DNA from: Candidatus Saccharimonadota bacterium
GTDB lineage: Archaea > Micrarchaeota > Micrarchaeia > Micrarchaeales > Micrarchaeaceae
Length of the DNA stretch: 32,000 nt
Direction of reading: 5' to 3'
Assembly: GCA_021654395.1 (NCBI GenBank)
Contig: AP024486.1
Coordinates: 240,001-272,000, forward strand
Shown: piece after piece, positions 1 to 25,275 of the stretch
How positions within the stretch are numbered: the first letter of the stretch is position 1
Layout of the letters: every line of letters starts with the position of its first letter
Notes under the pieces: generated by a model
The model's database searches: none
What the model saw: the letters and a program-made list of their open reading frames with translations, nothing else
What the model was told of the DNA's origin: nothing
Position numbers and translations under genes: made by a program

Positions 1-1829
1 ATATAGCAAAGGAGAATAGAATAAAGGAAGTTTTAGAAAAGACTCCAAATATAATGATACTTAAAGACGAAGCCCATCATATATATAATTATGAAAGAAA
101 GTGGAAAAGCATATTGCTCAAATTGCACAAGCATCTAGAGTCACAGTATGGAAAGGGCATTCTAGCAGAGCTTGACTTCTCTGCAACTCCAAGGTCAGAA
201 AACGGTAACTTATTCTACTGGTTAATAGTAGATTTTACGCTTAAAGAAGCAATAGATATGAATATAGTAAAAAGGCCGCTAAAAGGAATGGTTTCTAACG
301 CTTCTGAAGTTTCATCAAAAGATATTGTTGAAAGATATAGGGCCTGGATAGATGCAGGCATAAGAAGATGGCAGGAGTATAAAAATGTATTATCAAGGTT
401 AAATAAAAAGCCGATACTATTCTTTCAATGTCCTAATAATAGAGAAGCAGACAAGTTAAAAGATTATTTAGAAACGATACCCGAAGCAAGAGGAAAGATT
501 CTTTTAATACATACTGATAGCACTGGAGATATCTCTAAATCCGATATCGAACGCGCAAGAGATGCTGCAAGGGACATTGATAGTGAAGATAATCATTATG
601 AAGTAATAGTAAGCACAATGATGCTAAATGAAGGTTGGGATGTAAGGAATGTAAATATAATTGTTGGTCTCAGATCATATACTTCTAAGAGAAAGGTTCT
701 GCCTGAGCAAGTTATTGGAAGAGGATTAAGGAAGATGTTTCCAGATCTTACAGCGGATACAAAGCATTCAATAAATGTTCTAGAGATTATTGGTCCTCCT
801 GGCCTGATGGAGATAATAGAGGATCTTGAGATGGAAGAGAACATAAAATTTGATACAGTAAATGTCGATTCTAAGATCGATGAAACTGACATACATGTTG
901 AAAAGAACAAGATAGATAAAGATATAGAGATACCAATACTATCTCCAAGGATTACTATAGGGAGACCAAATATAGACATGTCTATTCTAGATAGATTGCC
1001 TGCACTTTCACTACCCTTAGAGAATAAGATACTAAAGACAGAATATAAAGCCATAGATATGGTAAAGAATACAGTAGAAGTAGAAAGAATCTGGGATCTG
1101 CCAGTTCCTAAGGATTCTAAGAGCGTAATTGCTTATTATACTGACATTATACTAAGAGAATTAAGGTTACCGAATAGCTTCTCTGAATTATATCCTATAG
1201 TAAAGGCTTATGTTGAAACAAAGCTATTTGATCAGAAAGTAGATCTTAATGACCCTAGAGTATTGTATCAGTTAAGCAGTACTGAAACGAAGAAGAAGCT
1301 AGTAGACCTATTTGTAGAAAGTTTAAAAGCCAATCGCTTTACAGAGACGGAACCAACTAGCTACTACTACATTAGATTATCAGATATAGAGCCATTCCCC
1401 AAGGGAAGAGAGGTTTATAAAGCAGAGAAATGTATCTTTAATCTTGTTCCATGCGACAACGGCTTTGAATTAGAATTTTCAAAGTTCCTTGACAGAGCTG
1501 AAGACGTTATCTCATTCTGTAAGATTGTGCCTAAGATCGGCTTCTCCGTTGAATATATAGACTCAAAGGGCAATCTAAGATACTACTATCCAGATTTTAT
1601 TGTAGTCCTTAAGGATGCTAATTATATAGTAGAGGCAAAAGGAGAAGTAGACGAGAATGTAAGATATAAAGATGAAAGAATAAAGAGATGGTGCGAAGAT
1701 GCATCGAAGATTACTAAAAGAAGATGGAAGTATATAAGAGTCAATCAGATCGATTTCGAGAATTATTCGTTTAATACATTTGAAGAGCTAGTCAAAACTC
1801 TATCAACAGATAGAACAAGCTCTAAGTAA
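1..1829 (+). CDS. SF2 helicase-nuclease, type III restriction Res-subunit-like (5' partial, continues upstream of window)
   Basis: The frame is open from nt 3 through the ATG at 54, so the true start lies outside the window. Helicase motifs in the translation: DEAH box (ILKDEAHH), SAT (DFSATP), motifs V-VI (STMMLNEGWDV ... QVIGRGLRK). C-terminal PD-(D/E)xK-type nuclease signature YYPDF...IVEAKG. Confidence 0.75.
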   Translation, partial: IAKENRIKEVLEKTPNIMILKDEAHHIYNYERKWKSILLKLHKHLESQYGKGILAELDFSATPRSENGNLFYWLIVDFTLKEAIDMNIVKRPLKGMVSNASEVSSKDIVERYRAWIDAGIRRWQEYKNVLSRLNKKPILFFQCPNNREADKLKDYLETIPEARGKILLIHTDSTGDISKSDIERARDAARDIDSEDNHYEVIVSTMMLNEGWDVRNVNIIVGLRSYTSKRKVLPEQVIGRGLRKMFPDLTADTKHSINVLEIIGPPGLMEIIEDLEMEENIKFDTVNVDSKIDETDIHVEKNKIDKDIEIPILSPRITIGRPNIDMSILDRLPALSLPLENKILKTEYKAIDMVKNTVEVERIWDLPVPKDSKSVIAYYTDIILRELRLPNSFSELYPIVKAYVETKLFDQKVDLNDPRVLYQLSSTETKKKLVDLFVESLKANRFTETEPTSYYYIRLSDIEPFPKGREVYKAEKCIFNLVPCDNGFELEFSKFLDRAEDVISFCKIVPKIGFSVEYIDSKGNLRYYYPDFIVVLKDANYIVEAKGEVDENVRYKDERIKRWCEDASKITKRRWKYIRVNQIDFENYSFNTFEELVKTLSTDRTSSK

Positions 1830-3285: not shown

Positions 3286-4621
3286 TATAAAAGATCTATT
3301 TAAGAGTGTATTAAGTAATGATAGAATACTTACTGATGATAACGAAGTAATGCCTTATAGCAGAGACAAGTCATACTTTAATTCTGTTAGGCCTTTAGCT
3401 GTATTAAAGCCAAAAGACTCAAAGGAGCTTTCAGAGATAATGAAGATAGCAAATGAGAATAAGATAAAAGTAATAGCAAGAAGTGGGGGCACATCTCTGA
3501 CAGGAGCATCAATTGTTAATACTGATGCAGTCGTTATATCTCTAGAGCTAATGAATAGAATAAGGATCTACAAGGATGATCAGATAGCTATTGTTCAGCC
3601 TGCTGTCAAGATAGATGAGCTAAACAGGGAGCTTGCAAGATATAATCTATTCTTTCCAGTAGATCCTGCAAGCTCTTATATATCTGAGATTGGTGGAAAT
3701 CTTTCGACTAACGCCGCTGGTCTACTATCTGTAAGATACGGTCCTATAAGCAGATGGGTGCTAGGACTAGAGGTCGTTTTACCAGATGGAAGTATAATAA
3801 GGACTGGTACATCAACCATTAAGCAGTCATTGGGATTTGATCTAACGCATCTCTTTATAGGAAGCGAAGGAATATTAGGAATAATAACAGAAGCAAAGCT
3901 TCAGGTAATAAGTAAGCCCAAAGATGCAGTTAGCGTTGTAATATCATATGATAGTATTAAGGATCTTATAGAAGATGTAAAGATAGCAAGGGTGGAGCTC
4001 GATATACTTAAGTTAGAGTTTTTAGATAATCTATCGGCGAAGATCTTAAGCAAGGAGCTAAATGATATGCAAATAAAGCCAGGATTTATCTTGAACATTG
4101 AGGCATTTGATAGTGCATCAAAAATAGAGAGCTTGTTTAAGGATAAGGATATTAAGATACTAAAAGATGATGAGAAGCAGAAGTTCTTATTCTCAAGGAA
4201 GCGCTTACATGATTATCTAGAGAGTATAGTCTCTAAAGAAGGAAAGGATATGCTAGTAGAGGATATTGCTATACCTCTATCTAATCTTTATGAAGCATAT
4301 ATAGAGATAGAGGAGCTGCTTAAAAAAGAAGAGCATTATATATTTGGACATATAGGCGAGGGCAATCTGCATATAAATCTTTTTATAGATAAAGGAGATA
4401 TAAGGCATTATGAGGATCTTACATATAAGCTAGGAGAGCTTACTTTAAGGCATAACGGTACTATATCTGCAGAGCATGGAATAGGCTTAGAGAAGAAGGA
4501 GCTTCTCAAGCTTCATTATAAATATCTAAATTCAGAGCATAGTCTAGAGCTAATAAAGTCTATTAAAAGATTGATAGATCCAAACAATATACTAAACCCA
4601 GGTAAGGTTATTGACCTGTAG
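3278..4621 (+). CDS. FAD-linked oxidase, GlcD / D-lactate / D-2-hydroxyacid dehydrogenase family
   Basis: N-terminal FAD_binding_4-type region (VIARSGGTSLTGAS, PASSYISEIGGNLSTNAAG). C-terminal FAD-oxidase_C features (GHIGEGNLHIN, SAEHGIGLEKK, IDPNNILNPGK). Confidence 0.85.
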   Translation: MHNIKDLFKSVLSNDRILTDDNEVMPYSRDKSYFNSVRPLAVLKPKDSKELSEIMKIANENKIKVIARSGGTSLTGASIVNTDAVVISLELMNRIRIYKDDQIAIVQPAVKIDELNRELARYNLFFPVDPASSYISEIGGNLSTNAAGLLSVRYGPISRWVLGLEVVLPDGSIIRTGTSTIKQSLGFDLTHLFIGSEGILGIITEAKLQVISKPKDAVSVVISYDSIKDLIEDVKIARVELDILKLEFLDNLSAKILSKELNDMQIKPGFILNIEAFDSASKIESLFKDKDIKILKDDEKQKFLFSRKRLHDYLESIVSKEGKDMLVEDIAIPLSNLYEAYIEIEELLKKEEHYIFGHIGEGNLHINLFIDKGDIRHYEDLTYKLGELTLRHNGTISAEHGIGLEKKELLKLHYKYLNSEHSLELIKSIKRLIDPNNILNPGKVIDL

Positions 4622-5699
4622 ATCTTCTTAAAAGCATATTTCTGATACTTAAGCTTATACTATCCATATCTGCATATCTAACTATCATCCTATTTATGTA
4701 CTTATTATTTATACCTTTTAGAATTAGACTAAATATACTTTCATCTAGATGCATATAAGCATAAGATAGCAATCTATTCATCAGAAGATCGTATCTTAAT
4801 CTAGACTTCCAAAGCCTATCGTAATAAGACATATCTATACCATTACTGAAGTACCTTTTAACACTTTCGTATAAAAGCTCTATGCATCTTTCTATATACG
4901 CTATTCCACCACCAGTATAAAGCTTTACTTGACCTGCAGCATCACCTATTAATGCAATATTCTTATAACCTGTAATCCTTCTAGGTATATATGGTATAAC
5001 ACTTGCATGCTCTGATCTATTACTATCTTTATCCAATCCGTAATAGGAGAGCTTCTCTAGAATCCAATGCTTGTAATATGAGCTAGGCCTAGATAATGAT
5101 TTATTAATACCGTAGCCTAGCTCAATAACGTTGCTATAGCTTAATGACCATCCTATGAAGCCCCTTTCATTTATATTGTCTAGATATATGTGAGCTGTAT
5201 TATCTTTAATATCTGCATTGAGCTCCATCTTATATGTAAGTAGATATCTTTCTATAGAAGGTAGCCTGAAGCTGTACGCAACCGTAGAGTTAAAGCCGTC
5301 TGCTCCTATTATAAGATCATAATCTTTAGAGAGATATCTGAGCTCCTTTGGATCTACTCTATAACCTAGCTTTATGTCTGCTTTATTCTTTACCTTTTCA
5401 TAAAGCTTATAGACAAGCTCTCTTCTATCGAAGACATATGCCTTAGGATAGCTGAACTCTATAGTTGCAGTCTCTTTTCTAGTATGTAGTATAACCTTCT
5501 TAAGTATATCAAGATGCTTTATATCAGCTATAGCTTTTATATAGCTACTTGCATTCTCTGATAGTATGCCGGATGCATACTCTGCTCTCTCCCTTACATC
5601 TCTCTTTGATTCAACTATATTAACATTATAGCTATCTGATAGCTTATACGCTGTTAATAGACCAGCCACACCGGCGCCCACTATAAGTATGCGATTCAT
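4608..5699 (-). CDS. FAD-dependent oxidoreductase, geranylgeranyl reductase family
   Basis: N-terminal Rossmann dinucleotide motif ILIVGAGVAGLLTA. Later LIIGADGFNS and LIGDAAGQVKLYTGGGI motifs typical of archaeal (di)geranylgeranyl reductases. 14-nt convergent overlap with the FAD oxidase 3' end. Confidence 0.8.
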   Translation of the reverse strand: MNRILIVGAGVAGLLTAYKLSDSYNVNIVESKRDVRERAEYASGILSENASSYIKAIADIKHLDILKKVILHTRKETATIEFSYPKAYVFDRRELVYKLYEKVKNKADIKLGYRVDPKELRYLSKDYDLIIGADGFNSTVAYSFRLPSIERYLLTYKMELNADIKDNTAHIYLDNINERGFIGWSLSYSNVIELGYGINKSLSRPSSYYKHWILEKLSYYGLDKDSNRSEHASVIPYIPRRITGYKNIALIGDAAGQVKLYTGGGIAYIERCIELLYESVKRYFSNGIDMSYYDRLWKSRLRYDLLMNRLLSYAYMHLDESIFSLILKGINNKYINRMIVRYADMDSISLSIRNMLLRRSTGQ

Positions 5700-5894: not shown

Positions 5895-6125
5895 ATGAAG
5901 ATGTATATAATAAAACCAACCTCTTCAGATTACACAGATTACAGCGATATAATAGATCTTCTAAATAAGAAGAGCTACAAGTTGCATATACTGATACCAG
6001 ATAGATCAGATGGCCTGTATGTAATAACTAGTTACGATACAGAGCTGAAGGAGCTCGAGAAGTTAGAGGCTTATACTGTTAATGTTGTAGAGTGCTTTAG
6101 ATACCTGATTAATGCAACACATTAA
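5895..6125 (+). CDS. Small hypothetical protein (76 aa)
   Basis: ORF-track start is TTG 5859. ATG 5895 is preferred because AAAGGAGAtataATG gives a GGAG Shine-Dalgarno 6-7 nt upstream. No recognisable motifs. Confidence 0.4.
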   Translation: MKMYIIKPTSSDYTDYSDIIDLLNKKSYKLHILIPDRSDGLYVITSYDTELKELEKLEAYTVNVVECFRYLINATH

Positions 6126-6153
6126 TAAGCTTTAATATTATAAGTTTTTAAAT

Positions 6154-6459
6154 ATGACAAAAAAAGAAGCTAACGAAGATGATGATATAAAGCCTGAGAT
6201 AAATATAGTAAATATAGTAGTTACGGGAGATCTCCACGTTAGTGTAGATCTTGCTGCATTGGCTTCAAATCTAAGTAATGTAGATTATGAGCCAGAGCAG
6301 TTCCCAGGAGCAATATTTAGGGTAGATGATCCGAAGTGCGCCATAATACTATTTAAGAATGGTAGAATAATCTGCACTGGATTAAGGACAGAAGAGCATA
6401 TAAAGGAGGTTTTGCAAAGATTAGCTGATGCTGTATCAAAGTATGTAATAGAGGAGTAA
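6154..6459 (+). CDS. Single-repeat TATA-box-binding-protein (TBP) domain protein, 101 aa
   Basis: [11 protein letters not shown]...VDLAALA...[39 protein letters not shown] matches one TBP repeat end to end, closest to the C-terminal repeat of archaeal TBP. Only one repeat is encoded. The stop abuts the convergent GT4 gene. Confidence 0.8.
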   Translation: [101 protein letters not shown]

Positions 6460-7620
6460 TTAGAAGCCTTTAGAGATACAGCTTCTAATATATCTATCAA
6501 AATTGTTTAGGAAGGCATCTACTGTATAGCTCTCTTTTATCTTATTATAAGCTGCCTTTCCAATGCTCTCAGATAGAGAGCTATCATTTATAATAAGATT
6601 TAGCTTCTCTGCAAACTCTTCTGGTGTGCTGCATAAGAAGCCGTCTACTCCATTCTTTATATAATCCTTTGGACCGCCTTCATTTATAGCTAATACTGGC
6701 TTTCTACTTGCCATCCCCTCTAGAGGGACTATTCCGAAATCCTCATCCATTGCAACAAATAGCACAGCAGTTGCATTAGCATATAGATCTAAAAGCTCTT
6801 TATCAGAAGGATTTGTTCTTATTTCAATACTACCAACGCTCTTTGCTAGCTCTACTATCCTATTATAGTAATCTTGATAGAACTTATCATTTGAAAGAGC
6901 CCCAGCAAGTATCAGCTTATATCTATTATCTTTGTCGTATCTTTCCTTAAATACCTTAAATATCTCTATTGCGAGCTCCTGTCTCTTATTTGGAGAGAAT
7001 CTAGAAGGATATAGTATATATCTGCCATCACCAGCGTTATAAAATCTTTCTAGCTCTATTACTCCAGGGTTAATTATAGTGGCATCATTCCTATTATAAT
7101 ACTTAATAATTCTACTATTTGTATTGCTGCTATTTGTTGCTATATACTTTATCTTCCTTACCATACTCTTATCTATATACCTAGTTATACTTGCCCCTAT
7201 AGCATATACTGGTTTTTTATATAATGGTCTTAAGCTCATTCTGTACTTATAAAGATCGTAGATCTCTCTTAATGGAGTATGGCAGTACCATATAAGATTC
7301 TTATTATTCCTTATAAGCCAATGGCTAGGCGCTATATGTGCATTTATTACATCATAATCCTCTTTTACCTTGTAGTTATAGAATACTAGACTGTAATTTA
7401 TAGCTTGAGAGACCCTGCCATAAGGTATAAACTTGTATATGCTCTTTACTCCGATCTCTTTTACATTCAGCTCTTTGAACTCCTCAAATGTCTTATTTGG
7501 ATCATAGTCACATGTTAATATATCTGCATTATACTTCAAGGCTATATACTTAATTACCTTTTCAGCCCCTCCTTTAAGATTTAGATAAGGAGTTGAGATA
7601 AGCATTCTTACGCTATTCAT
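6460..7620 (-). CDS. Glycosyltransferase, GT-B fold, family 4 / group 1
   Basis: C-terminal GT1/GT4 signature EDFGIVPLEGMASRKPVLAINEGGPKDYIKNGVDGFL; size (386 aa) is typical. Confidence 0.85.
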   Translation of the reverse strand: MNSVRMLISTPYLNLKGGAEKVIKYIALKYNADILTCDYDPNKTFEEFKELNVKEIGVKSIYKFIPYGRVSQAINYSLVFYNYKVKEDYDVINAHIAPSHWLIRNNKNLIWYCHTPLREIYDLYKYRMSLRPLYKKPVYAIGASITRYIDKSMVRKIKYIATNSSNTNSRIIKYYNRNDATIINPGVIELERFYNAGDGRYILYPSRFSPNKRQELAIEIFKVFKERYDKDNRYKLILAGALSNDKFYQDYYNRIVELAKSVGSIEIRTNPSDKELLDLYANATAVLFVAMDEDFGIVPLEGMASRKPVLAINEGGPKDYIKNGVDGFLCSTPEEFAEKLNLIINDSSLSESIGKAAYNKIKESYTVDAFLNNFDRYIRSCISKGF

Positions 7621-7670: not shown

Positions 7671-8591
7671 ATGGCTAGTAAGATGAAGCTGCAGAATGCT
7701 ATAGAGTTTCTAGTTACATACTCTTGGGCGTTTACTATAATATTAATAGTTGCACTAGTGTTTCTATATCTACAGATATTTAATCCATACGCTCATATAA
7801 ACTATGCAACTCCTGGCTCATGCTATGTATACAGGCCTTACGGCCCATTTAATAATACAGATGCAAGATTAGAAGGTCTATGCAATGATGCGCCACCAGA
7901 GTTCGTTGCTAGTATTAATACATCATCTACATTGGGCTATGCGCTATATACTAATAACTCTGCTTTAGCGTATTATGGAAGTGGTGATAAGAATAGAACA
8001 TTTATAGCATGGATATATGTTAAAGCTTATGAACCTGATATAAACTCTTGGTGGATGATTGGCGGCTGGTATGGTACTCCAGTATTTGTTAATGGTGGTG
8101 AGCAAGCGCTTCTAATACTGCATGGAGCGTCGTGTGAGCCACAAGCAGATCTATATTTTCAGACATGGGCTGATGATGCATGCTCAACGCAGCTACTAGT
8201 TCCGTTAGATGCATGGGAGATGGTTGGCTATGTCTATCCTTATAATGGTAACTATACGCAAGTAGAGCTTATACTTAATAACGAGACACAAGTATTAAGT
8301 ATAAGTAGGCCGATAAATGTAACTTACACCAGCTATCCTGTATTTGTTATAGGCGGTCAATACTCTAATGGCTATATAGCTAATGTCCAAGTCTATAATA
8401 CAACATTATCTAATCAAGAGATCCTTGCATTATACAAGGAAGGAATAGGAGGAGCGCCAATAGATCTTAACAATCTTATTGCATGGTACCCGCTTAATGG
8501 TAATCTAAATGATACATCTGGTAATAATATAACATTAGATGAGGTTCAAGGAACTACAAGCTTTGTTTCTTATGAGGCAACAATACATTAG
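7671..8591 (+). CDS. Secreted/surface protein with archaeal class III (type IV pilin-like) signal peptide and LamG/concanavalin-like domain
   Basis: N-terminus MASKMKL/QNAIEFLVTYSWAFTIILIV fits the QxSxExxxL class III signal peptide pattern followed by a hydrophobic helix. The body has LamG-like ends (RTFIAWIYVK ... GYIANVQVYNTTLSNQEILALYKEG). The C-terminal LIAWYPLNGNLNDTSGNN resembles the opening strand of another LamG unit. Many N-x-S/T sequons. Confidence 0.65.
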   Translation: MASKMKLQNAIEFLVTYSWAFTIILIVALVFLYLQIFNPYAHINYATPGSCYVYRPYGPFNNTDARLEGLCNDAPPEFVASINTSSTLGYALYTNNSALAYYGSGDKNRTFIAWIYVKAYEPDINSWWMIGGWYGTPVFVNGGEQALLILHGASCEPQADLYFQTWADDACSTQLLVPLDAWEMVGYVYPYNGNYTQVELILNNETQVLSISRPINVTYTSYPVFVIGGQYSNGYIANVQVYNTTLSNQEILALYKEGIGGAPIDLNNLIAWYPLNGNLNDTSGNNITLDEVQGTTSFVSYEATIH

Positions 8592-10031: not shown

Positions 10032-10394
10032 CTAACTTATAATTAGATGTGTCATGCTTCCAAGTCTCTTAAACATATGCTCTAGCTCTAGCTTAAAGTC
10101 ATTAAGCTCTAGGTATCCAGTTATAGATAGTATCTCTTTGCTATTGTAGAATATCTTTATTGTTGGTGTAACAGAGATCTTATACTTAATGAATGCGTAC
10201 TTATTGCTATCCTTTGCATATAGGTTTATATTATAGAAGTCTAACTTATCTGCGTAGAGCTTCTCTATGTCTTCTAGGATCGGCTTTAGTCTAGCGCACC
10301 AGACGCACTTATCTGTCATAAACTCTACTAATGCTGGCCTCTCGCTATTAGAGCTAACAATTCTCTCAAGCTCATCGTTATCTATCTCTTTCAT
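10032..10394 (-). CDS. Thioredoxin-fold protein with CxxC (CVWC) active site
   Basis: ALVEFMTDKCVWCARLKPILEDI ... ISVTPTIKIF matches the thioredoxin layout (WCxxC region, cis-Pro T-P-T). Starts 4 nt after the upstream KaiC-like gene stop. Confidence 0.75.
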   Translation of the reverse strand: MKEIDNDELERIVSSNSERPALVEFMTDKCVWCARLKPILEDIEKLYADKLDFYNINLYAKDSNKYAFIKYKISVTPTIKIFYNSKEILSITGYLELNDFKLELEHMFKRLGSMTHLIIS

Positions 10395-10398
10395 AGTA

Positions 10399-11127
10399 TC
10401 ACTTAAATACTCTTATTCCCTTAGATGTTATCTGATAAGGCAGCGCTGTTGTTTTATGATTAGAGCCACGCATCTTCACTACTCTAACTAGGTACTGATA
10501 GCTACCGCCTATATCTTTAGTGTATAGCTTAATTATTCCATCAAACATATAAGTTCCATATAAGCCAAAGATCTCCGTAAAGTTATCTGTCTGGCTTGAC
10601 TCCAATGTATATAAAACTGTTAAGCCTCTTTTCTTCATAGAGCTTGTAAGATCTATAAGATACCTTGTAAAGATCTTATCATTCTCAAATAGAGTTCTAT
10701 AGACCGTTAAAGAATCTATTGTTATATATGTAGCCTTATTCTCTTCTATAGTCTTCTCTATAGAAGCTATATCCGCCTCTGACTCTTCTCTAGATTTTAT
10801 TGCATACTTCCTCTCTACATTCTTTATATTTAATAGACCTTTTGATATAAGCTCATCGATATCATCAAAGTACTCAAATGCGCTTTTTAAGTTTTTGAGG
10901 ATCTCATCTACTCCCTCTTCTGTAGAAATAAAGCAAGTAGCTATTCCTGCTTGAGCATTTCTATAAAGAGTCTCAAAGCTCATTAAGGTCTTTCCAGTTC
11001 CTGGCTCACCTACAACTAAGACCTGCGCTGCCTTTGGTATTCCACCGTAAAGCATATCGTCTAGTCCATCTATGCCAGTGCTTACCTTCTCTATAAGTAC
11101 TCCTCCTTTATAATCCTCTTCAGCCAT
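10399..11127 (-). CDS. KaiC-like / RecA-superfamily single-domain ATPase (second of tandem pair)
   Basis: STGIDGLDDMLYGGIPK, Walker A GEPGTGKT, catalytic STEEG, Walker B-like YITIDS, C-terminal VKMRGSNH. The ORF-track GTG start at 11136 is probably part of the SD (GTGATctctATG); ATG at 11127 preferred. Confidence 0.8.
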   Translation of the reverse strand: MAEEDYKGGVLIEKVSTGIDGLDDMLYGGIPKAAQVLVVGEPGTGKTLMSFETLYRNAQAGIATCFISTEEGVDEILKNLKSAFEYFDDIDELISKGLLNIKNVERKYAIKSREESEADIASIEKTIEENKATYITIDSLTVYRTLFENDKIFTRYLIDLTSSMKKRGLTVLYTLESSQTDNFTEIFGLYGTYMFDGIIKLYTKDIGGSYQYLVRVVKMRGSNHKTTALPYQITSKGIRVFK

Positions 11128-11135
11128 AGAGATCA

Positions 11136-11861
11136 CTATATCTCAACAATGTCTATTCCAGAGGACGTTATCTCATAAGGAAATGCTTTAGTAGAATGAG
11201 ATGTGCCTCTCATCTTTACAATCTCTAATGTTCTAATCCTGCTATCTGTATTGCTGCTGAAGTACATTCCTATAACTCCGTCATATATAAAGAACTCTGG
11301 TGGAAACTCTAAGAAGTCTCTATACGGCTTACTGACTTCTAGAGTTAATAATGCTGTTATATTATTCTTCTTCAAGATATTTATTAGCTTCATCGACATC
11401 AATCTAAAGCTTATTGGATCGCTTATAAGATTCTTAAATATAGTTACAGAGTCTATCACAGCGACAGATACATTATTGTTAAGGATTATTGAGTAGATCG
11501 ATGCTAATGCGTTATTAAATAGATAAAGCATCTGCTTAGTATCGTCGAAGGCAGAGTTGCTTATTACCTGAAGTATATCCTCTCCATTAATGATTAAGCT
11601 ATTCTTATTAATTAGATCTTCTGCATCACTGAAATCGCTAAAAGCCTCTATAGCATCATCTATTATCTGCTTTGGTGTCTCCTCTAATGATATAAAAGCA
11701 GATTTCAGCCCCTTCTTTGCATTCTTGTATAGAAACTGAAAGCAGAATAGGCTCTTACCAGCGCCTGCGCCTCCTGCCAATATTACTACATTACCTTTTG
11801 GTATTCCACCCCCCATTAAAGAGTCTAGCTTATCTATACCTGTAGTTATCCTTTCTTTCAA
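11136..11861 (-). CDS. KaiC-like / RecA-superfamily single-domain ATPase (first of tandem pair)
   Basis: TTGIDKLDSLMGGGIPKG, Walker A GGAGAGKS, SLEET, Walker B VAVIDS, VKMRGTSH. Its stop overlaps or abuts the next KaiC-like gene. Confidence 0.8.
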   Translation of the reverse strand: MKERITTGIDKLDSLMGGGIPKGNVVILAGGAGAGKSLFCFQFLYKNAKKGLKSAFISLEETPKQIIDDAIEAFSDFSDAEDLINKNSLIINGEDILQVISNSAFDDTKQMLYLFNNALASIYSIILNNNVSVAVIDSVTIFKNLISDPISFRLMSMKLINILKKNNITALLTLEVSKPYRDFLEFPPEFFIYDGVIGMYFSSNTDSRIRTLEIVKMRGTSHSTKAFPYEITSSGIDIVEI

Positions 11862-21383: not shown

Positions 21384-22079
21384 CTATATAGCAATTAAAG
21401 CGAATATATAACCGAAGATTGCACTTATAAGACTGCATATAAAGTTGCTAGTGAACTTGTTGCCATAGCCTCTCTCTTCAAAATGTCCTGCTATAGAATC
21501 TGCTATATTGCCTATGAAGCCAGCTAATGATATTAGTAATACTAATAGATAAGCACTGTTTAGATGAAAGATTAAAGATAATGCGTAAGCATCAAGGCCT
21601 ATTATAAAAGATCCTATATAGCCAAAGAAGAATCCTACTGCAGTAACTCCTCCAGAGGTGCCCTTTTCTACACGTTTAAAGGTTAATATATCAATAGGAT
21701 TGCTAGTGTATAGTACTGCTAGCTCGCTGCTGAACTTATCAGATGTAATGCCAGCAACACTAGCGATCATTGAGAATACTATCAGCTCTTTTAAAGAGCT
21801 ATTGCTTAAAAGTACAAGTATTATAGAAAGTAAAAAGACAGTTAATCCATTTCCAATTACATTTGCCAAGCCTCTGCTCTTCTGGTATAGCTTTGCTTTC
21901 TTCTTCTTATATGAGCCTATCTCAGTTACTATGTATGATAGCACTAGGAACTCAAATAAGCTTAGTAGCAGAATAAGCCCTATTGATATACTAAAAGCAA
22001 GATAGCCGCACAAGAAGATCACAAAACCCATTAACAAGGCAGCAGCAGTTCCTTTCTTGTCTAATGTAAAGAATGTCAT
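21384..22079 (-). CDS. Integral membrane protein, DUF92 / TMEM19 (TIGR00297)-like
   Basis: Multi-TM protein. SDKFSSELAVLYTSNPIDILTFKRVEKGTSGGVTAVG resembles the DUF92 core (DT.aSE.G.l....p.lItt.k.V..GT.GGvS..G). Confidence 0.55.
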   Translation of the reverse strand: MTFFTLDKKGTAAALLMGFVIFLCGYLAFSISIGLILLLSLFEFLVLSYIVTEIGSYKKKKAKLYQKSRGLANVIGNGLTVFLLSIILVLLSNSSLKELIVFSMIASVAGITSDKFSSELAVLYTSNPIDILTFKRVEKGTSGGVTAVGFFFGYIGSFIIGLDAYALSLIFHLNSAYLLVLLISLAGFIGNIADSIAGHFEERGYGNKFTSNFICSLISAIFGYIFALIAI

Positions 22080-24126: not shown

Positions 24127-25275
24127 ATGCTTAAGCTAGAGTTGAGCGGTAACAGCGCGTATAGCTTAGACTTAGAGACATTTAATGAGCTAAAGGAAGC
24201 CTTTATAGGAGCAGTTAATAAAGATAGAGTGTATCTGAAGCCTGAAGAGATAGTATATCTGATGGAAGTTAGAGGTGCAAAGCTTTATAAGGATGGAAGA
24301 GAGCTCGATATAGATCATATACTAAGGCAGTATAGCGATATTAAAAGATTCTATGCAAGATACGCTACATATAAAGACTGGAGGGAGAGAGGCCTTTATG
24401 CACTAACAAGCTACTCTCTAGATAAGACAGTTGGTTATAACATCAAAGAGTATTCAAAGAAGGCTATAGAGCTTCCTAGTGGGGTTATAGAGGTATCTTT
24501 TATAAAAGATGATCTTATATCATTATGCAAGATCAATGAGCTCTCAGAGCTTCTGTACAATGAGCTGTGGTTTGGGCAGTATGGCAACTATAAGGATAGC
24601 AGCTCTGGGATGCTTGTAAAGTATGATATATTTGAGACCTTATATCTGATTGATAAAGGTATAATCAAAGCAAACTATGATAAAGAAGCAATGTATAAGT
24701 CAGCAAGAAGGAGACATAGATTCTTTGATCTTATGTATAATGTTTATGCAGATTGGAGGGATAACGGCTTTGTTGTAAAGTCTGGCTTCAAGTTTGGCTC
24801 TAACTTTAGAATATACTTTCCAGGAATAAAGCCATCCGATAGATCAGATAATAAGATCTCCCACTCTAAGCATGTATTGCATGTATTTCCAGAGAACAGC
24901 AAGCTTTTGACATCAGAGTGGGCCAGAGCTATAAGAGTGGCCCATTCTGTTAAGAAGAGCTTTATACTAGCTATACCGCAGATATCAAAGGTTAAGAGGA
25001 TAGATATAGACTTTGTCTTGTATCATAGAGATAGAGGCTTTACAATGATACCAAATAGAGATAAGGCATCTTATGCGATATACTCACTTGCAGAGGATGA
25101 GTACATTGATGGTAAGCTATTACTATCAATAATAGAGAGAGCTAAGGAGATGAATCTTAATGCATTAATCTCTATAGCAGATAGAGAGTCATCTGTAACT
25201 TACTATAAGCTTAAAGAGATTAGGATAAGTGATAGCAATAATAGATACTTCGAGATAGAATGGATGCAGCCTTAA
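24127..25275 (+). CDS. endA: tRNA-splicing endonuclease EndA, multi-unit (probably three-unit) architecture
   Basis: Catalytic unit: YADWRDNGFVVKSGFKFGSNFRIY ... HSKHVLHV ... RVAHSVKKSFILA (Tyr/His/Lys triad context). A degenerate upstream copy is YATYKDWRERGLYAL. An extra C-terminal partial unit ends in ALISIADRESSVTYYKL. 382 aa is about twice the single-unit enzyme. Confidence 0.85.
   Translation: MLKLELSGNSAYSLDLETFNELKEAFIGAVNKDRVYLKPEEIVYLMEVRGAKLYKDGRELDIDHILRQYSDIKRFYARYATYKDWRERGLYALTSYSLDKTVGYNIKEYSKKAIELPSGVIEVSFIKDDLISLCKINELSELLYNELWFGQYGNYKDSSSGMLVKYDIFETLYLIDKGIIKANYDKEAMYKSARRRHRFFDLMYNVYADWRDNGFVVKSGFKFGSNFRIYFPGIKPSDRSDNKISHSKHVLHVFPENSKLLTSEWARAIRVAHSVKKSFILAIPQISKVKRIDIDFVLYHRDRGFTMIPNRDKASYAIYSLAEDEYIDGKLLLSIIERAKEMNLNALISIADRESSVTYYKLKEIRISDSNNRYFEIEWMQP

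Follow-up and report, generated by a model that had tools for sequence, protein, structure and literature searches.

We found that ORF 6154–6459 of the Micrarchaeon Ca. Microcaldus variisymbioticus ARM-1 encodes a real and strongly conserved TATA-binding protein (TBP) of Micrarchaeota that consists of a single repeat. Archaea and Eukarya universally recognise promoters by means of TBP, and we know of no characterised case in which a TBP acting as general transcription factor is anything other than a two-repeat pseudo-dimer. Textbooks carry the hypothesis that TBP arose from a one-repeat protein able to dimerise. Our full-text literature searches found no description of Micrarchaeota half-TBPs, as the one-repeat proteins are called here, and a structural paper of February 2026 still treats the monopartite TBP as hypothetical, illustrating it with RNase HIII only (PMC12917281). 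We propose, at about even chances, that TBP is split here and that the ORF supplies one of its two subunits, each a one-repeat protein with a gene of its own; they are referred to as type 1 (the ARM-1 gene) and type 2.

A stand-alone TBP repeat in ARM-1

The gene lies in a 32-kb window, by which we mean the whole stretch of DNA that was analysed, and the features discussed are collected in Table 1. The half-TBP starts with its own ATG and ends with a TAA at 6457–6459 that abuts the stop of the convergent glycosyltransferase (GT4) gene, both as read earlier in the first-pass annotation. The frame around it runs from stop to stop over 6136–6456, and the in-frame TAA just upstream leaves no room for an N-terminal extension or for another repeat fused at that end. 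The Pfam TBP family (PF00352) has one match, at residues 15–97 and over the full model length (1–85 of 85), with E=6.5e-26 and 90.4 bits against a cutoff of 22.9 bits, which bears out the claim of a stand-alone single repeat encoded as its own gene of 101 aa. The full-length NCBIfam TBP models (PRK00394) are covered over half their length and score 66–91 bits, with cutoffs of 181–347. The 101-aa one-repeat ORF is thus not a chain of ~180 aa with two tandem repeats, and since half-TBPs miss the full-length cutoffs, their NCBI annotation is often “hypothetical protein”.

Table 1. Positions of the half-TBP gene, its neighbours and the DUF92 gene in the ARM-1 window
Feature	Positions	Strand	Remarks
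Geranylgeranyl-reductase-like FAD oxidoreductase gene, divergent upstream neighbour	4608–5699	-	Weak DAO and FAD-binding Pfam matches
76-aa ORF between oxidoreductase and half-TBP genes	5895–6122	+	ARM-1-specific; preceded by a GGAG motif
In-frame TAA	6133–6135	+	18 nt 5' of the half-TBP ATG; from the sequence
Type-1 half-TBP gene	6154–6459	+	101 aa; BCS90804.1, Ca. Microcaldus variisymbioticus ARM-1; ORF and exact database match
Single TBP repeat	6196–6444	+	Residues 15–97; PF00352; topology S1-H1-S2-S3-S4-S5-H2
GT4 glycosyltransferase gene, convergent downstream neighbour	6460–7620	-	Pfam Glycos_transf_1 and Glyco_transf_4
DUF92 membrane-protein gene	21384–22079	-	Flanked by L15e and RadA; 295-bp spacer without TBP remnant

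In a search of PDB sequences, the half-TBP could be aligned equally to both repeats of archaeal TBPs, and the Pyrococcus repeat 2 that had been quoted earlier for comparison agrees with the PDB sequences. When the family HMM was run in six frames over the whole 32-kb window, no other TBP repeat was found (next match E=0.17), in line with the earlier failure to read a second repeat on either flank. Being a lone repeat with no second one adjacent, the protein has to pair with another half to form the predicted saddle, and this part of the earlier argument stands.

The repeat contains the stirrup D44-Y-E-P-E-Q-F-P-G52 together with residues F50, F67, N20 and T75. From established TBP structures we take F50 and F67 to be the intercalating Phe pair and N20 and T75 to be groove contacts; V22 is presumably a concave-sheet DNA contact alongside Thr, as in TBP–DNA structures, and the E-P-E-Q/L stirrup is assumed to be the TFB/TFIIB-binding site (1AIS/1VOL and human TBP mutagenesis). 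Positions N20, V22, F50, F67 and T75 align with the canonical DNA-contact positions and are at least 95% conserved among 176 family members, and the stirrup (D44-YEPEQFPG-52) is invariant in the family alignment. The AF2 model of the half-TBP has a mean pLDDT of 70 and shows the TBP helix-grip fold. The top 44 Foldseek matches of this model are all TBPs, and it superposes on one repeat of solved TBPs with an rmsd of 1.0–1.9 Å over ~80 residues; its TM-score is ~0.72 when query-normalised and ~0.42 when target-normalised, i.e. half a saddle. The central strand S1 (residues 14–20) is the least confident part of the model core, as would be expected if this strand has to be completed by one from a partner.

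In principle the gene could be an artefact or pseudogene, left behind when a sequencing error or recent deletion disrupts a canonical TBP, but the chance of this is negligible. ARM-1 is a cultured thermoacidophilic Micrarchaeon with a closed PacBio and Illumina genome of 814,439 bp (AP024486; PMC8784108), and the identical half-TBP protein is present in an independent Logan assembly of Illumina reads alone (DRR248898). The agreement between the closed hybrid genome and the Illumina-only assembly excludes a frameshift or deletion artefact, and the concern that the gene owes its shape to a sequencing error has been settled. In addition, no TBP-like sequence is present in any other frame nearby, and the same one-repeat architecture occurs in 80 other genomes under purifying selection. 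Taken together, these results refute the artefact reading.

The 76-aa ORF upstream was considered as a degenerate second TBP half and rejected. It has no Pfam or TBP similarity (hhalign probability against TBP of 0.1%), as had been noted before, and no homologue in the 80 other type-1 loci. Its stop lies only 28 nt before the half-TBP ATG, so that co-transcription of the two genes is possible, judging from this spacing.

Two one-repeat families and their loci

Type-1 genes occur in 80 or more Micrarchaeota assemblies, and their locus is fixed in the order FAD oxidoreductase, half-TBP and GT4. Two protein searches matched 334 and 311 clusters; the best 120 listed of each are proteins of 90–149 aa, except for three two-repeat proteins in the 334-cluster search, and the taxon labels among the matches listed are mostly Micrarchaeota. 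When species-representative genomes were scanned, at least 357 relatives of the type-1 half-TBP were obtained. The best 80 of these each belong to a different assembly, with contigs of 0.93, 1.05 and 1.21 Mb among them, and all 80 loci are type 1 by sequence signature. Together with the window locus they make 81 loci, each with exactly one TBP repeat within ±10 kb; a second repeat or second half is absent within ±10 kb both from these 81 type-1 loci and from ~50 type-2 loci. The GT4 homologue is convergent in 70 of the 81 loci with a median gap of 9 nt, and a homologue of the FAD oxidoreductase is found in 61 (for example L069).

The dN/dS of the type-1 half-TBP is ~0.14, with saturated synonymous sites. 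Over the same genome pairs, the median identity is 76% for the half-TBP, 70% for SRP54, 56% for GT4 and 43% for the oxidoreductase. The ARM-1 protein is the most divergent of the family, with 58% identity. A mobile or viral origin was considered as well and rejected, since the IMG/VR search gave no half-TBP (its only two matches are both two-repeat TBPs) and the chromosomal synteny is conserved. Some type-1 loci that are typical of Micrarchaeota have been deposited under other names, namely L044 (DATJMH010000015.1) as “Candidatus Saccharimonadales bacterium”, L031 (JAKBPE010000007.1) as “bacterium” and several further contigs as “Marsarchaeota”; mis-binning or mislabelling of the MAGs is the likely cause.

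Type 2 occupies the TBP site of sister lineages, where their TBP has two repeats. The closest two-repeat TBPs (Anstonellaceae P0124 and P0002 of an Iainarchaeum-like lineage) are divergent from the genes L21e-RpoF-DUF655-KsgA. Type 2 was first reached by an exhaustive HMMER search of 1.84 billion representatives, which gave 6,285 matches at E <= 1e-3. Besides type-1 proteins, the best 150 of these include two further proteins with a single repeat, P0467 and P0473. The latter, KGH98_02665 in a Micrarchaeota MAG, has 117 aa and one repeat; its gene is directly divergent from L21e, with RpoF and DUF655 adjacent, and thus lies where the ancestral TBP is located. Scanning metagenomes with type 2 gave 397 relatives, and the best 80 of them comprise ~50 single-repeat genes of 94–125 aa with 60–83% identity to P0473, the weaker matches being two-repeat TBPs. 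Of the 38 type-2 loci with enough flank, 24 have L21e next to them upstream in divergent orientation. Types 1 and 2 are ~52% identical on average (55% for the pair within one MAG), have an identical 11-residue stirrup stretch in common and are never adjacent.

Two further kinds of protein were seen in these searches. First, type 2b (L144:8679–9020, P0467 and P0489) is a third stand-alone one-repeat TBP with a long Lys-rich N-tail; it is 69% identical to the Anstonellaceae repeats and lies at an intact KsgA-DUF655-L21e / TBP locus. Second, P0357 (an ENA contig of 2,054 bp) has a type-1 N-half and a type-2 C-half joined at the shared 11-residue stretch, and this chimera probably results from mis-assembly of the two paralogues in a metagenome.

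Both types were documented in one MAG in two cases, with the reservation that MAGs can be chimeric. JAGWHI01 carries type 1 at L042 (KGH98_01650, P0296) and type 2 at L088 (KGH98_02665, P0473), and JAWDMK01 carries type 1 at L061 and type 2 at L175, on different contigs. For the complete Mia14 genome, two arCOG01764 (TBP) proteins are tabulated as a count only and uncommented, and nearly all other DPANN genomes in the same Supplementary Data 4 have one (PMC5498576). No Mia14 protein was among the best 120 of the 311 clusters in the search seeded with P0063, and the A_DKE, DPANN-survey, LFLS and Undinarchaeota supplements contain no TBP entries.

These loci bear on the reading that the half-TBP is an accessory or regulatory protein beside a canonical TBP, acting as a competitor or decoy for TFB or the TATA box or as a specialised factor. 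It has precedents, since every monopartite TBP-domain protein described before occurs alongside a full TBP (PMC3597702), but we regard it as improbable. The ancestral TBP locus in Micrarchaeales is itself occupied by a one-repeat gene. Among the matches listed, no two-repeat TBP is labelled Micrarchaeaceae or Micrarchaeales and none shares a contig with a half-TBP, whereas two-repeat TBPs are present in sister MAGs of Anstonellaceae, whose isolate and locus-tag names suggest that they come from the same hot-spring study. In Anstonellaceae a DUF92 homologue is immediately downstream of the two-repeat TBP, while the DUF92 gene in the window has no TBP beside it; in the type-1 genome of L069, RpoF-DUF655 are present, again with no TBP beside them. 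Finally, every DNA-contact and TFB-stirrup position is kept and the half is more conserved than SRP54, which makes a pure decoy unlikely, a decoy being one of the options raised in the first-pass annotation.

Proposed pairing of the halves and history of the repeats

In the split TBP that we propose, one type-1 and one type-2 subunit would pair via their central S1 strands into a ten-stranded saddle. This heterodimer would bind and bend the TATA box and recruit TFB through a stirrup, and the direction would be set by the BRE–TFB contact, as it is elsewhere in archaea. The proposal presupposes that ARM-1 has a type-2 gene in the part of its genome beyond the window. Because a second, distinct half is present at the ancestral L21e TBP site in related Micrarchaeales, a heterodimer is the more parsimonious arrangement. 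The wider form of this proposal is that Micrarchaeales, including the cultured ARM-1, Mia14 and A_DKE, have no two-repeat TBP and would run all their transcription on a saddle formed from the products of two unlinked one-repeat genes, the Anstonellaceae TBP apparently being a re-fused half; we regard this form as evenly poised between right and wrong.

The same stirrup and DNA-contact residues are present in both halves, so each could equally form homodimers. A homodimeric TBP with a symmetric saddle would be either the only TBP of ARM-1, with type 2 lost from its 0.81-Mb genome, or one of two homodimeric paralogues, in which type 1–type 1 and type 2–type 2 pairs have different promoter or TFB preferences. 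We consider this reading, its variant included, possible though on the unlikely side. The repeat is complete and self-sufficient at all known functional positions, and a symmetric TBP would be mechanistically tolerable because archaeal promoter polarity is set by BRE–TFB. In L144 the ancestral locus is occupied by type 2b as a stand-alone gene, and the position of the ARM-1 copy as the most divergent of its family would also be in keeping with a homodimer. On the other hand, both genomes in which this could be checked (the two MAGs) have two different halves, Mia14 is tabulated with two proteins, and an obligate pair is the simplest reason why two halves under equal constraint should both be kept; moreover, a loss of type 2 in ARM-1 is unsupported. 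The earlier view that the half-TBP could be only a homodimer or a decoy therefore survives as far as the homodimer is concerned, but the second half at the L21e site adds the heterodimer to the choices.

Anstonellaceae is the point at which the homodimer finds further agreement. In the Anstonellaceae P0124 TBP, the two repeats are 71% identical to each other (group mean 79%), compared with 42–55% in other archaeal TBPs. The N and C repeats of Anstonellaceae cluster together (92% bootstrap) and with the stand-alone type 2b (74%). This similarity suggests that the Anstonellaceae TBPs (P0124/L082:6001–6570, P0135, P0145 and P0152) arose by a recent re-duplication of a single repeat or underwent gene conversion. 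The clustering is the pattern expected from the fusion of a homodimer-forming half, and from its sequence the Anstonellaceae TBP looks like the fusion product of a half that paired with itself.

A few TBP-family proteins with other repeat numbers were also noticed. P0126, P0127, P0128, P0132 and P0341 (ENA contigs of ~1–2.6 kb) are three-repeat proteins of 272–283 aa, P0344 from a DPANN MAG has 702 aa with four degenerate TBP repeats and a long C-terminal region, and P0342 and P0443 resemble eukaryotic TBPs duplicated in tandem. Some of these three-repeat, four-repeat or tandem proteins may be assembly or gene-model artefacts.

The half-TBP has the architecture of the hypothesised ancestor, and the family might be a living relic that descends directly from a one-repeat protein older than the TBP duplication, in keeping with NJ bootstraps that assign type 1 and type 2 to neither C nor N repeats. 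This is very improbable. The half-TBPs group with DPANN N and C repeats against the Methanocaldococcus, Sulfolobus and Pyrococcus repeats with 87–90% bootstrap, and the signatures FPGAI and LFKNGKxIC are common to half-TBPs and the repeats of DPANN two-repeat TBPs. This grouping and these DPANN/Micrarchaeota signatures indicate that the half-TBP family is derived. Besides, Micrarchaeota are one lineage within DPANN, and the other members of DPANN carry a TBP of two repeats at a conserved locus. The earlier notion of a pre-duplication ancestor thus does not hold as a statement of ancestry. In 47% of bootstraps types 1 and 2 form one cluster, a result that would equally agree with the duplication of a single half; judged from these trees, the two types may have originated by fission into C and N repeats or by truncation followed by duplication of one half.

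Comparison with known systems and other genes in the window

The half-TBP shares PF00352 and the fold with canonical archaeal TBPs (Pyrococcus woesei 1PCZ/1AIS, Methanocaldococcus jannaschii 2Z8U and Sulfolobus acidocaldarius 1MP9), as well as the YEPEQFPG stirrup, the Phe pair and the Asn/Thr contacts. Its core identity to each of their repeats is 35–42%, with higher values in local phmmer alignments. Canonical chains have two repeats, whereas the half-TBP has one and about half the length, and its saddle is predicted to form between chains. The Anstonellaceae two-repeat TBP (P0124/L082) is among the closest two-repeat relatives, with 43–55% core identity and the signatures FPGAIF and LFKNGKIICTG in common, but it has the two repeats fused in one chain at the L21e locus.

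Single-domain TBP proteins are already known from haloarchaea (TbpA) and Thermococcales, but those coexist with normal TBPs. The haloarchaeal TbpA and the ~95-aa Thermococcales proteins are stand-alone single TBP domains of <150 aa and not misannotated TBPs; the TbpA homologues closely resemble the full-length TBPs found in their own species, and the Thermococcales proteins have diverged far from TBP, to which their blast similarity is weak, and form their own sequence cluster (PMC3597702). The half-TBP resembles these monopartite proteins of Brindefalk et al. 2013 in being a stand-alone single domain. It is not a distant relative of TBP like the Thermococcales group, having 35–42% identity and E ~1e-26, nor a recent truncation like TbpA, as the closest two-repeat TBPs are <=55% identical and belong to other lineages. 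Unlike both, it is order-wide with conserved synteny, keeps the functional residues and has a second half at the ancestral locus.

Split genes of reduced DPANN genomes are exemplified by RpoB, AlaRS and reverse gyrase of Nanoarchaeum equitans. Counts of 2 are given for RpoB, AlaS and others in this organism (Supplementary Data 3, PMC5498576). As in the proposed split TBP, an essential protein is encoded there by two unlinked ORFs whose products reassemble. The TBP split differs in that it falls between homologous repeats, so that the products are paralogous and could self-associate. A single TBP-type helix-grip fold is also found in the RNase HIII N-terminal domain and in DNA glycosylases (PMC3597702; PMC12917281). 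These are domains within enzymes, without the stirrup and Phe-pair motifs, and the half-TBP has no significant sequence similarity to rnhC (E=0.05).

If the proposal is true, Micrarchaeales would offer a natural replay, open to experiment, of the fission and the duplication-fusion through which TBP is postulated to have arisen. Should fully TBP-like one-repeat proteins be the working units there, saddle formation by a single repeat would be directly testable, and homodimer versus heterodimer pairing could be tested within the same lineage. Promoter polarity under a symmetric or nearly symmetric TBP and the course of fission and re-fusion of the TBP repeats would become testable as well. ARM-1 grows in co-culture, which makes at least one family member available for experiments. 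The “hypothetical” labels that result from missed full-length cutoffs also mean that surveys of basal transcription factors in DPANN can miscount TBP.

Several other genes in the window deserve a short description. The window starts inside a ResIII helicase gene; at 54–1829 (+) and upstream (L001:1178–5676) there is an N6/N4 DNA methyltransferase gene followed by the gene of this 849-aa helicase, and the two look like a type III restriction-modification pair. The product of 7671–8591 (+) has 306 aa; its hydrophobic N-terminus (MASKMKLQNAIEFLVTYSWAF...) resembles that of archaeal pilins, and a lectin domain of Laminin_G_3/ConA-like type is weakly matched. Comparable Laminin_G_3 proteins lie on the flanks of a type-2 half-TBP in L185. 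Two tandem KaiC/RadA-like ATPase genes (Pfam ATPase and DUF7125) lie at 10399–11861 (-), followed by a thioredoxin gene at 10032–10394. Finally, 24127–25275 (+) encodes a tRNA-splicing endonuclease of 382 aa with an N-terminal domain match and two catalytic-domain stretches, a multi-unit single-chain EndA that we take to be reminiscent of the unusual ARMAN-2 endonuclease.
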